A DNA stretch of 64,000 nucleotides from Escherichia phage WPEC4, in sequence record PV682947.1; one strand, given 5' to 3'. The notes beneath the pieces were generated by a model. That model saw only the letters and a program-made list of their open reading frames with translations, made no database searches and was not told the DNA's origin. Shown here one piece after another: positions 59,872 through 60,061 of the stretch (position 1 is the stretch's first letter; each line of letters starts with the position of its first letter). The position numbers and the translations under genes are program-made.

Positions 59872-60061
59872 GTGGTAACAGGGTCGTTGACTTTTGTTAA
59901 GAGGGGCTTGCACTGCGGTAGTGTTAGAGACTACTTCTTCAGAGGTTAGCTACCAAAGAGGAAAAGGAATAGTCTCGGCTCAAGAACTTTTACGCTGAAA
60001 GTTGGGCTTGGTCTTAGAGAATGTAGCGGTTCTCTACAATCGTCAGCGTCTCTGTTACCAC
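59872..60061 (+). ncRNA. structured leader / candidate small RNA upstream of tRNA-Met
   Basis: 10-14 bp terminal helix GTGGTAACAG...CTGTTACCAC enclosing ~170 nt; no ORF. Confidence 0.3.

Follow-up and report, generated by a model that had tools for sequence, protein, structure and literature searches.

The spacer that precedes the first tRNA gene in a tRNA cluster of the phAPEC8-like Escherichia phage WPEC4 (PV682947.1) contains a non-coding, strand-specific structured RNA element, here named E1, and our results support the view that it is kept by selection. Its fold is conserved among Phapecoctavirus homologues, and its architecture is repeated in other spacers of the same cluster. The predicted RNA is about 200 nt long and lies on the + strand at positions 59866–60067 of the window, by which we mean the whole 64,000-nt stretch of DNA that was analyzed. 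One of its ends is the predicted transcription start, and the other is the RNase P site of a tRNA-Met(CAU), which was identified at 60068–60142 (+) by ARAGORN and by the Rfam tRNA model (64.5 bits). E1 was found at a single place in each of 70 phage records. No paralogue was found in the window with covariance model R1, and blastn searches of E. coli genomes and plasmids came back empty.

Position, Closing Helix, and Promoter of E1

A sequence-only reading of the window had proposed that a perfect 10-bp helix closes this element, and the pairing is exact: GTGGTAACAG at 59872–59881 is the reverse complement of CTGTTACCAC at 60052–60061. The same reading extended the helix to about 14 bp. The helix does extend, but its length was underestimated, as we found 16 contiguous pairs, a 1-nt bulge, and 6 more pairs. 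In the longer part (P1), the 5′ strand 59868–59883 (+), which contains GTGGTAACAG, pairs with the 3′ strand 60050–60065 (+), which includes CTGTTACCAC and stops 2 nt short of tRNA-Met; 11 consecutive Watson–Crick pairs are followed by two G·U pairs and then by more Watson–Crick pairs. Beyond the bulged U59884, the 6 pairs of P2 (59885–59890 with 60043–60048, both +) stack on P1. Together, P1 and P2 form a near-continuous duplex of 22 bp, which has the length of an RNase III stalk (at least 20 bp, or about two turns). The enclosed segment had been put at about 170 nt without an ORF. It measures about 150–165 nt and contains no conserved ORF, although two non-ATG ORFs that are broken in relatives do occur in it.

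The closing helix by itself is unremarkable when compared with chance. In simulated sequences, about 27 perfect 10-bp inverted repeats within 260 nt were found per 64 kb, as well as about 1.8 (range 0–4) runs of at least 16 pairs with G·U allowed. It is the whole fold and its compensatory evolution that exceed chance. A third exact copy of the closing-helix arm sequence was not found within the 64-kb window.

E1 lies, as had been noticed from the sequence, directly 3′ of a promoter with a palindromic spacer. The sigma-70 promoter predicted for the first tRNA transcription unit (59829–59858, +; 10/12 matches in a consensus scan) comprises the −35 element TTGACA (59829–59834), an 18-nt spacer, and the extended −10 element TGt-TAGGAT (59850–59858). 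The phiWec179 clade keeps it as TTGACA ... TGT-TAAGAT. On this basis, transcription of E1 is predicted to start at about 59865–59868. The palindrome that overlaps the promoter (59829–59869) has 16-nt arms (59829–59844 with 59854–59869, 94% complementary) and a 9-nt centre, and it folds at −17.3 kcal/mol (z = −5.6). Read from the alignment with phiWec179, it shows two compensatory changes and one G·U-compatible change. It may be an operator-like DNA site, or else an RNA hairpin in read-through transcripts. No terminator-like site was found between 59866 and 60068.

Fold and Internal Hairpins

Folding bore out the proposal of a structured element. The 202-nt RNA reached −76.8 kcal/mol (z = −5.58), and none of 200 shuffled sequences was as stable as the native fold. 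The opposite strand folded at −53.7 kcal/mol, which is 23 kcal/mol worse, because about 15 G·U pairs contribute to the fold of the + strand. Moreover, the covariance model of E1 scored 243 bits on the + strand of the window versus 31 bits on the − strand.

The internal domain consists of a series of hairpins, all on the + strand. Pa (59891–59905) is formed by CUUUU and GAGGG around the loop GUUAA and has one compensatory pair, U-G to G-C. Pb (59910–59924, GCACU ... AGUGU) has two, namely C-G to U-A, and U-A to C-G or A-U. The long three-part hairpin Pc (59927–59976) also has two compensatory pairs; its apex, GGU-UAGCU-ACC, is invariant and carries the self-complementary hexamer UAGCUA at 59947–59952. 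The two-part hairpin Pd (59977–60008, GGCUCA ... UGGGCU) hardly varies apart from a single U-A to A-U swap, and CGC lies in its apical loop at 59993–59995. Finally, the short helix Pe (60009–60042, with 60009–60012 paired to 60039–60042; two compensatory pairs) encloses the hairpin Pf (60016–60022 with 60029–60035, loop GUAGCG), in which five compensatory pairs were found.

Conservation, Covariation, and Coding Potential

The conservation set consisted of 10 Phapecoctavirus homologues from two clades that are about 81% identical. In these 10 sequences, E1 has 72 conserved pairs, which are 98.3% paired. Compensatory double changes occur at 13 of the 72 pairs, as against 0–1 in controls in which the partners were slid by 1–3 columns. 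Between the window and L056, all 15 differing pairs stay paired, 11 of them through double changes. The covariation that the sequence-only reading looked to for confirmation is thus present in the internal hairpins but not in P1, which is invariant in close relatives; two single mismatches are the only exceptions among the 10 homologues. P2 changes from U-G to U-A and from G-C to G-U, and its pairing is kept because both products remain pairs. Taken together, P1 and P2 are invariant within Phapecoctavirus except for two pairs that vary on one side. Since the closing helix is invariant in close relatives, covariation there requires accepting the homology of the PVP-SE1-type elements described below. 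When the two types are compared, the pair type differs at nearly every position of P1, but the alignment was fitted to the model.

Pattern scans of IMG/VR widened this set little: longer patterns added just three close homologues, and the invariant 15-mer GGTTAGCTACCAAAG retrieved 53 loci, all of them chance or coding matches without the element.

Some records, among them WPEC1 and PsgM04F, annotate a "hypothetical protein" at E1. The region contains two small ORFs of 25 and 34 codons with GTG/TTG starts (59872–59949 and 59894–59998). They are disrupted by a 1-nt indel frameshift in REC, ukendt, and UP17 and by a stop codon in the phiWec179 clade, and substitutions are spread over the three codon positions as 6/9/6, with no third-position bias. 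A small protein gene was rejected on these grounds.

Sister Modules in the Same tRNA Cluster

At least four further spacers of the tRNA cluster (E2, E3, E4, and sp5) are closed by long helices like that of E1, and these four also have the near-continuous duplex of an RNase III stalk. E2 (60221–60404, +; about 184 nt; z = −3.5) starts 1–2 nt past the CCA of tRNA-Arg and has a closing helix of 11 + 7 bp, with one compensatory pair. Its homologues in Seunavirus tRNA clusters are about 70% identical. E2 is a family distinct from E1, and it was scored by neither the E1 model nor the PVP-SE1-type model. E3 (60634–60749, +; z = −4.6) follows tRNA-Ser(GCU). Its closing helix of at least 13 bp covaries, in Justusliebigvirus too, with C-G, G-C, or A-U at one position and U-A or C-G at another. 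E4 (61109–61194, +; z = −2.9) is a 23-bp hairpin beginning at the tRNA-Thr 3′ end. The spacer from tRNA-Gly to tRNA-Gln is filled by sp5 (61500–61596, +; z = −5.3), a hairpin of about 25 bp whose sequence is 100% identical in both Phapecoctavirus clades.

Probable Relatives in Other Phages

A second type of element, found in PVP-SE1 (NC_016071, 66623–66823), FENT2, K54lambda1.1.1, FBKp34, and KP13-16, thus in PVP-SE1-like and Klebsiella phages, is probably a remote relative of E1 with the same architecture. These PVP-SE1-type elements lie in tRNA clusters, on the tRNA strand, directly past a tRNA-like ...CCA end and/or just 5′ of a tRNA. Both they and E2 resemble E1 in size (185–200 nt) and in their clamp-closed design, and all three have a common niche, the tRNA clusters of Stephanstirmvirinae and Vequintavirinae. 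The PVP-SE1-type element also has the hairpins Pb, Pc, Pd, and Pf in the same order as E1, together with short common motifs: UUAA(A/G)A of Pa, UGCAC...GUGU of Pb, and CAAG and CGC of Pd, which align with the Pd of the other type. The loop motifs CGC (Pd) and GCG (Pf) occur in both. The counterpart of the Pc apex is UCGCGA in PVP-SE1 and FBKp34, whose elements are 87% identical, and UUCCGGAA in FENT2. Within its own family, the PVP-SE1-type clamp covaries at 3 pairs. No Rfam match to this element was found, E ≤ 10 included.

Covariance-model matches between the types were reciprocal, with 17–22 bits for R1 on PVP-SE1-type elements and 21–33 bits for R2 on E1, and these scores draw largely on the clamp; the internal part alone gave 8.4 bits one way and no match the other way. 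Profiles of the internal region produced no cross-detection with nhmmer. Because the nhmmer searches were empty and the internal-only covariance searches weak or empty, we regard the homology as only probable. A MAFFT alignment of the two types was set aside, its 3′ halves being misaligned, and a cross-type model-based alignment with antisense rows removed was used. Justusliebigvirus, 4MG, and GAP31 gave no match to R1 or R2, and in Justusliebigvirus, which is without E1, tRNA-Met begins 7 nt past a CDS.

A Probable Processing-Defined Module

The explanation that we favor, and consider probable, is that E1 is a module of about 200 nt that is co-transcribed with the tRNAs and defined by processing, that its clamp provides a stalk for RNase III and/or protects the ends, and that a stable RNA is the product. 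Host RNA polymerase would start at the extended −10 promoter, 0–3 nt 5′ of the P1 5′ strand, and the transcript would carry E1 together with tRNA-Met and tRNA-Arg, the two tRNAs that come first in the operon. From what is established for tRNA processing, an RNase P cut between 60067 and 60068 would set the 3′ end of E1, 2 nt past P1. Since the transcription start and this cut abut the P1 strands, the duplex of 16 + 6 bp would clamp both ends of E1. In the sister modules, the clamps would bring the 3′ end of one tRNA beside the 5′ end of the next. The clamp may be a double-stranded stalk cut by host RNase III, like the stalks of rRNA operons and the T4 tRNA precursor. It may also protect the ends of E1. 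In both cases it would leave short single-stranded tails for RNase P and 3′ exonucleases and stop the spacer from misfolding with the tRNAs. Compensatory evolution has preserved the five or six internal hairpins, so that the RNA, once excised, would be expected to persist and to have a role of its own. It would be a stable small RNA comparable, but not homologous, to T4 species 1/2.

The sequence-only reading had also offered the term processing-defined leader. E1 indeed fits exactly between the predicted start and the point where RNase P would cut before tRNA-Met, but an E1-like module sits inside the operon in the probable relatives, so that "leader" describes its position here and not its nature. 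Some observations count against parts of the favored explanation. For RNase III, a plain hairpin such as sp5 suffices, and the stalk leaves the conserved internal domain of E1 unexplained. As for the module, the sister genus Justusliebigvirus manages without it.

Alternative Explanations

In E1, the hairpins of the internal domain and a number of loops and junctions are conserved more than a processing stalk requires, which would suit an RNA that is chiefly trans-acting and for which the tRNA operon is a delivery vehicle, either as a decoy or sponge that binds a host nuclease or a defence protein or as a self-associating "mini-ornate" RNA like ROOL and GOLLD. We consider this possible, though rather doubtful. 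The apex of Pc is a self-complementary 6–8-mer that differs in three lineages (UAGCUA, UCGCGA, and UUCCGGAA), but any perfect hairpin also ends in a self-complementary apex. The CGC and GCG loops of Pd and Pf are common to both types, and the module is found at varying sites in the tRNA clusters of the subfamilies, with 87% identity between FBKp34 and PVP-SE1. ROOL and GOLLD, which also occur near tRNA islands, homo-oligomerize (PMC12286853). On the other hand, the distribution is narrow and patchy, with the module absent from Justusliebigvirus, 4MG, and GAP31, and E1 has no Rfam relationship to a known trans-acting RNA. Still more tentatively, E1, the PVP-SE1-type element, and E2 might represent an undescribed class of clamp-closed "ornate" RNAs of about 190 nt, a miniature counterpart of ROOL and GOLLD, that are specific to tRNA islands in large enterobacterial myoviruses, are exchanged as modules between phage subfamilies, and, once excised, act in trans. 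Such RNAs could self-associate by the Pc apex (UAGCUA, UCGCGA, or UUCCGGAA) together with a CGC:GCG loop–loop contact, or they could be decoys for host double-strand-specific or tRNA-directed nucleases.

It is unlikely that E1 is a mobile palindromic element at the DNA level, similar to a MITE or an intervening sequence, whose RNA fold is a by-product of terminal inverted repeats. Such repeats are present, with 16-nt arms that are invariant over 16 bp, and the element is patchy in presence and differs in its insertion points within tRNA clusters. In PVP-SE1 and FENT2, moreover, comparison with 4MG and GAP31 suggests that it is nested within the 5′ arm of E2, and in PVP-SE1 it is adjoined by an ORF that, as read from the sequence, looks like an HNH endonuclease. 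Nevertheless, there is one copy per genome, E. coli chromosomes and plasmids gave no match, and a clear target-site duplication is not present. The element always lies on the tRNA strand, about 15 G·U pairs make its fold strand-specific, and the compensatory changes fall in the internal hairpins and not just at the ends.

The place of E1 between a promoter and the first gene, and its complex multi-helix junction with conserved unpaired nucleotides, are also features of a cis-regulatory leader (a riboswitch, attenuator, or antitermination element) that would control tRNA transcription. We think this very improbable. Neither a terminator-like site nor an alternative pairing was found between E1 and tRNA-Met; the downstream gene is a tRNA, which has no ribosome-binding site to mask; in the probable relatives the module is internal to the operon, with a tRNA-like gene on one side and E2 or a tRNA on the other; and no riboswitch, T-box, or leader family matched at E ≤ 10. 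Least credible of all is that the region is a small protein gene of 25 or 34 codons or a functionless chance inverted repeat: two ORFs (59872–59949 and 59894–59998) and "hypothetical protein" annotations do exist, and chance would give about 1.8 helices of 16 pairs per 64 kb, but the frameshifts, the stop codon, the non-ATG starts, and the lack of third-position bias speak against coding, and the z-score of the fold and the compensatory changes exclude chance.

Significance for Annotation and Phage Biology

Phapecoctaviruses are isolated widely, as are their relatives (phAPEC8, PVP-SE1, and Klebsiella myoviruses), and these phages serve as therapeutic candidates. The parts of their tRNA clusters that are not tRNA are either unannotated or mis-annotated as "hypothetical proteins," and the finding of structured RNAs corrects this annotation. 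At least one RNA family that is lacking in Rfam is added, and probably two or three. Moreover, E. coli with its rnc, rne, and rnpA mutants is a tractable system in which to ask what purpose is served by small stable phage RNAs co-transcribed with tRNAs, and it bears equally on how long phage tRNA operons get cut up. If the excised RNAs were trans-acting, the ROOL/GOLLD phenomenon would extend to small RNAs of virulent coliphages.

Comparison with Known RNA Families and Systems

A search of 59860–60067 against Rfam 15 gave no match to E1, either at gathering thresholds or at E ≤ 10 with permissive filters; ROOL, GOLLD, 6S, Y RNA/YrlA, RNase P, tmRNA, riboswitches, T-box, and self-cleaving ribozymes were all without a match. 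Likenesses to the RNase P CR-I motif, rrn boxA, 6S RNA, Y RNA, and phi29 pRNA were dropped, as no model match or supporting feature was found for them. Our search of the literature found neither a Phapecoctavirus transcriptome nor a description of an E1 RNA.

The comparison with the small stable RNAs of T4, which the sequence-only reading had suggested, holds in that E1 is a non-coding structured RNA abutting a tRNA, but it does not extend to homology with rnaC or rnaD. Homology was rejected because R1, run with filters off on the T4 tRNA region, gave at most 7.8 bits, which was noise on a short leader hairpin. T4 species 1 (rnaC) and species 2 (rnaD) are likewise non-coding, with lengths of 119–139 nt as against about 200 nt for E1. 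In both systems the RNAs are encoded right beside a tRNA within the tRNA cluster of a phage and in the orientation of the tRNAs, and their ends are presumably set by the tRNA-processing machinery. Like E1, rnaC is strongly structured (z = −4.6). However, rnaC has a tRNA-like T-arm (GGGUUCGAAUCCC, CCGGGUUCGAAUCCCGG), whereas E1 has none and gave no tRNA-model match at E ≤ 10. The T4 RNAs end their cluster, while E1 heads its transcription unit, and the clamp of E1 is far longer than theirs.

E. coli RNase III cuts double-stranded stems of rRNA and tRNA precursors and contributes to the maturation of T4 tRNAs (PMC4810235). A flanking duplex of about 22 bp, directly beside mature RNA ends, is common to E1 and to RNase III stalks such as the stems of rRNA operons, those of 23S intervening sequences, and the leader of the T4 tRNA precursor, and this stalk-like design recurs at every long spacer of the tRNA cluster of E1. 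The 23S intervening sequences are, similarly to E1, patchy, stem-closed inserts, of 100–200 nt. The enclosed segment is a functional product in rRNA operons and is discarded in intervening sequences. Unlike a plain RNase III stalk, E1 encloses a domain that is itself under structural selection; cleavage of E1 by RNase III is a prediction.

ROOL and GOLLD are phage RNAs that occur near tRNA islands and form homo-oligomers, with no known protein partner or function (PMC12286853). With about 200 nt, E1 is 3–4 times smaller than these RNAs, whose lengths run from about 580 to over 800 nt; its carriers are virulent enterobacterial myoviruses, unlike those of ROOL and GOLLD, which are phages and prophages; and, in contrast to theirs, its oligomerization is a speculation from the self-complementary apical loop. 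Nevertheless, E1 resembles ROOL and GOLLD (PMC12286853) in being encoded by phages, in lying adjacent to tRNAs, as they often do, and in having an elaborate multi-helix fold with covariation.

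Fold and Covariation of the Element

We are confident that E1, the predicted structured RNA of about 200 nt at 59866-60067 (+) between a predicted promoter and tRNA-Met, is a real, selected and strand-specific structure. The sequence-only reading had paired 59872-59881 with 60052-60061, and these decamers are exact reverse complements; the helix, which it put at about 10-14 bp, is longer, P1 having 16 contiguous pairs (59868-59883 with 60050-60065) and P2 a further 6 (59885-59890 with 60043-60048) beyond a bulged U59884. Taken alone, this closing helix, or clamp, is within chance expectation: in a simulated 64-kb sequence, 10-bp inverted repeats without a mismatch and within 260 nt number about 27, and helices of 16 pairs or more, with G.U allowed, about 1.8. 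The whole element, unlike the lone helix, exceeds chance. The 202-nt RNA had a fold energy of -76.8 kcal/mol where shuffled sequences gave -52.7 +/- 4.3 (z = -5.58), and in a 200-nt sliding scan of both strands this value or lower was reached only in two giant repeat-derived palindromes near 8.6-9.9 kb, the scan being stepped by 25 nt and never framing E1 exactly, and the value of -76.8 coming from a separate fold of E1. Because about 15 of its pairs are G.U, the opposite strand folds 23 kcal/mol worse, and the structure therefore belongs to the tRNA-bearing strand.

The interval 8400-10200 is a dense mosaic of 77-160-nt repeat modules, direct and inverted, and holds a palindrome whose 152-nt arms (9657-9808 and 9809-9960) abut directly and are 99% complementary, as well as a pair of 77-nt arms, 8641-8717 and 8801-8877, with 100% complementarity. 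Its 200-nt windows went down to -155 kcal/mol in the sliding scan, far past the rest of the window; it may be a region of repeats that serves regulation or replication, or an artefact of assembly. A long inverted repeat at 6963-7223 forms a 48-pair contiguous helix, with its outermost pair (6963/7223) about 260 nt apart.

E1 was found by blastn in 70 phage records, one per genome, all of them Phapecoctavirus or mislabelled members, and three additional homologues lie on one IMG/VR contig and two metagenome contigs. No match was found in 5,426 E. coli genomes or PLSDB plasmids, and the element is absent from the sister genus Justusliebigvirus, where tRNA-Met starts 7 nt after a CDS. Two clades were distinguished, one with 95-100% identity to the window and one, including phiWec179 and PsgM04F, with about 81%. 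Three records, MG065650 (Campylobacter phage B15), OP562383 (Acinetobacter phage ABPW7) and OR584014 (Pseudomonas phage PsgM04F), are assigned to unrelated hosts and share 81-99.5% identity with E. coli Phapecoctavirus (208-nt element and surrounding 1.1 kb compared); these host labels may be wrong, or the lysates contaminated.

RNAalifold placed 72 pairs on ten E1 sequences, with 98.3% of cells paired. Double (compensatory) changes occurred at 13 pairs, against 0-1 when the partners were slid by 1-3 columns, and of the 15 pairs at which the IMG/VR variant differs from the window every one is still paired, 11 by double changes. These compensatory changes are located in the internal hairpins Pa, Pb, Pc, Pd, Pe and Pf; the flagged helix is invariant (0/22 pairs in P1 and P2 with double changes vs 13/50 elsewhere). 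This invariance implies a stronger, sequence-level constraint on the helix, but covariation within the genus neither supports nor contradicts it. A mobile DNA palindrome would share the patchy distribution and inverted ends of E1, but the element is strand specific, covaries internally and is single-copy, no second one being found in the window by R1, a covariance model from the ten sequences.

Probable Relatives in Other Phages

With filters off, R1 gave a full-length 197-nt match in PVP-SE1 (20 bits), directly upstream of a homologue of E2, another clamp-closed spacer of the cluster, and equivalents at 17-22 bits in K54lambda1.1.1 (Mydovirus), FENT2 (Seunavirus), FBKp34 and KP13-16 (both unclassified Stephanstirmvirinae). 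The five PVP-SE1-type elements form a blastn family of their own (76-100% identity). RNAalifold, applied to them independently, gave a consensus that is closed by an 18-20-bp helix and contains a short P2 and hairpins matching Pb, Pc and Pd in order and similar size and then Pf; of its 12 compensatory pairs, three belong to the clamp. R2, a covariance model from these elements only, matched the window's E1 over its full length at 32.9 bits, a score that the giant palindrome at 9.7 kb also reached through its helix alone; it gave 21-30 bits on other E1-type sequences and at most 10 bits on spacers, E2-like or other, from four related clusters. With R2, the inner part of E1 scored only 8.4 bits, the reverse test found nothing, and nhmmer profiles gave no cross-detection between the types. 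Both share UUAA(A/G)A with UGCAC 8 nt later and a Pb whose 3' strand is GUGU; in each, Pd has CAAG and a CGC loop, and the loop of Pf is GCG. We consider the two types probably homologous; if homology holds, nearly all P1 positions switch pair type between them yet stay paired. In their joint alignment, which was fitted to the model, 93% of cells are paired.

The PVP-SE1-type module stands after a tRNA-like gene ending in CCA and before E2 or tRNA-Gly. Its absence from 4MG and GAP31, both retaining E2, the 87% identity over the element between FBKp34 and PVP-SE1, which belong to different subfamilies, and neighbours that differ from phage to phage show that it travels as a module among tRNA clusters. 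Between the E2-like element and tRNA-Leu of the PVP-SE1 locus (L067), an ORF without annotation at about 3240-3670 reads as carrying an HNH-endonuclease-like motif (VDHIDRDVNNNNISNLQVLTRKAN), which suggests homing-endonuclease traffic in these clusters, as with segB in T4. In the FBKp34 locus (L071), a further structured spacer of about 115 nt (1382-1500) separates tRNA-His from the E1-like element; GGAUG/CAUCC closes it, and its end is ...CCA.

The idea of a processing-defined leader held only in part: given its placement after a tRNA-like gene, the module is operon-internal in the probable relatives, and being a leader as such is not its nature. The same position counts against a cis-regulatory leader, for which no expression platform is present either. 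As for a coding region, annotated as 'hypothetical protein' in WPEC1 and PsgM04F, both small ORFs in E1 are broken in relatives (REC, ukendt and UP17 have one nucleotide inserted, the phiWec179 clade has a stop codon), and substitutions in them have no codon-position bias; these annotations are therefore very probably spurious. The z-score of the fold, together with the compensatory changes, excludes a chance inverted repeat.

The tRNA Cluster and Its Promoters

E1 stands first in a tRNA cluster that spans about 2.3 kb and contains 10-11 tRNAs as well as tRNA-like genes, at the junction of leftward early genes (RNA ligase about 5 kb off) and rightward late genes (e.g. terminase). The region is 100% identical in Escherichia phage WPEC1 and 98-99.8% identical in many phAPEC8-like phages (genus Phapecoctavirus, subfamily Stephanstirmvirinae). 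The cluster has three 'CTATTGACAA'-type promoters (59829, 60416 and 61386) and is closed by a terminator at 62109-62127, with which sub-threshold Rfam matches at 62080-62134 coincide (RyhB 29 bits, MicA 24 bits); they most likely reflect only the terminator hairpin. A tRNA-like gene at 60454-60540 scored 37 bits with the tRNA-Sec model, below threshold, and is annotated as tRNA-Ser in PsgM04F; a similar long gene precedes the E1-like element of PVP-SE1 (L067:2700-2804). By eye, the 91-nt gap at 60945-61035 resembles a degenerate tRNA with a T-arm-like GGTATCGAATCC.

The promoter geometry ahead of E1 is conserved in both clades, and from it transcription would start at about 59865-59868. This promoter is embedded in a 41-nt palindrome (59829-59869), whose symmetry is preserved by two compensatory changes in the phiWec179 clade, and a similar 8-9-bp inverted repeat (AACTAACAT/ATGTTAGAT, 60424-60447) overlaps the -10 of the second promoter. 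These repeats may act as operator DNA for a regulator of the phage, or form an RNA hairpin when transcription reads through.

Clamps and a Proposed Role in Precursor Processing

In the mechanism that we propose, E1 RNA would fold while being made from that start, and its 5' triphosphate end would be sequestered by the clamp. RNase P would free tRNA-Met by cutting at 60067/60068, so that the clamp keeps a 3' tail of 2 nt, and RNase III may cut inside P1/P2. In both cases the resulting RNA would be 170-200 nt long and have its two ends held in duplex, a feature typical of stable small RNAs. The clamp stops 2 nt before G+1 of tRNA-Met and, since the RNase P protein subunit binds a single-stranded leader, we infer that opening or cutting it would help 5' maturation of this tRNA. 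A processing or clamp role for P1/P2 seems slightly favoured. Selection on five internal hairpins argues that the E1 product matters; an independent function in trans is possible, though we regard it as doubtful. In three lineages the apex of Pc is self-complementary over 6-8 nt, each time with another sequence; this is suggestive in that it would suit loop-loop dimerisation, but a perfect hairpin ends in the same way.

All the long spacers in this cluster have a long closing helix that starts 0-2 nt from the CCA of the preceding tRNA: E2 (60221-60404; 11+7 bp; fold z = -3.5), E3 (60634-60749; at least 13 bp; z = -4.6), E4 (61109-61194; 23 bp; z = -2.9) and sp5 (61500-61596; about 25 bp; z = -5.3), the last being essentially a 25-bp stalk with an unstructured loop. 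The E3 clamp covaries (C-G, G-C and A-U at one position, U-A and C-G at another), and both E3 and this covariation extend to Justusliebigvirus; the E2 clamp has one covarying pair. E2, of about 184 nt directly after tRNA-Arg, is conserved more widely than E1, with homologues of about 70% identity placed inside the tRNA clusters of PVP-SE1, GAP31 and 4MG (all Seunavirus), of SSE121, and of Cronobacter and Salmonella phages, and has no Rfam match. sp5 is 100% identical across both Phapecoctavirus clades; its neighbouring spacers differ by about 20%. That the clamp recurs suggests a function in how the polycistronic precursor is handled, where it would bring the 3' end of one tRNA beside the 5' end of the next and offer about two turns of duplex RNA, a classical RNase III substrate. 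This enzyme cleaves the stems of rRNA/tRNA operons and is involved in maturing the tRNAs of T4 (PMC4810235).

Comparison with Known RNAs

An Rfam search, which the sequence-only reading had proposed, returned no family match for E1 in Rfam 15, even at E<=10. The element is a new RNA family, absent from that database and not found in the literature searched. It is well supported and unannotated, its host is amenable to genetic work, and it is relevant to a long-standing question. The likeness to the small RNAs of T4 stands for position and kind; it is not one of ancestry, since R1 found nothing over the T4 tRNA region and E1 is without the tRNA T-arm that T4 rnaC carries. The category itself is already known, that of small or ornate RNAs, function unknown, of phage tRNA islands, to which ROOL and GOLLD belong (PMC12286853) and which E1 shares with T4 species 1 and 2.
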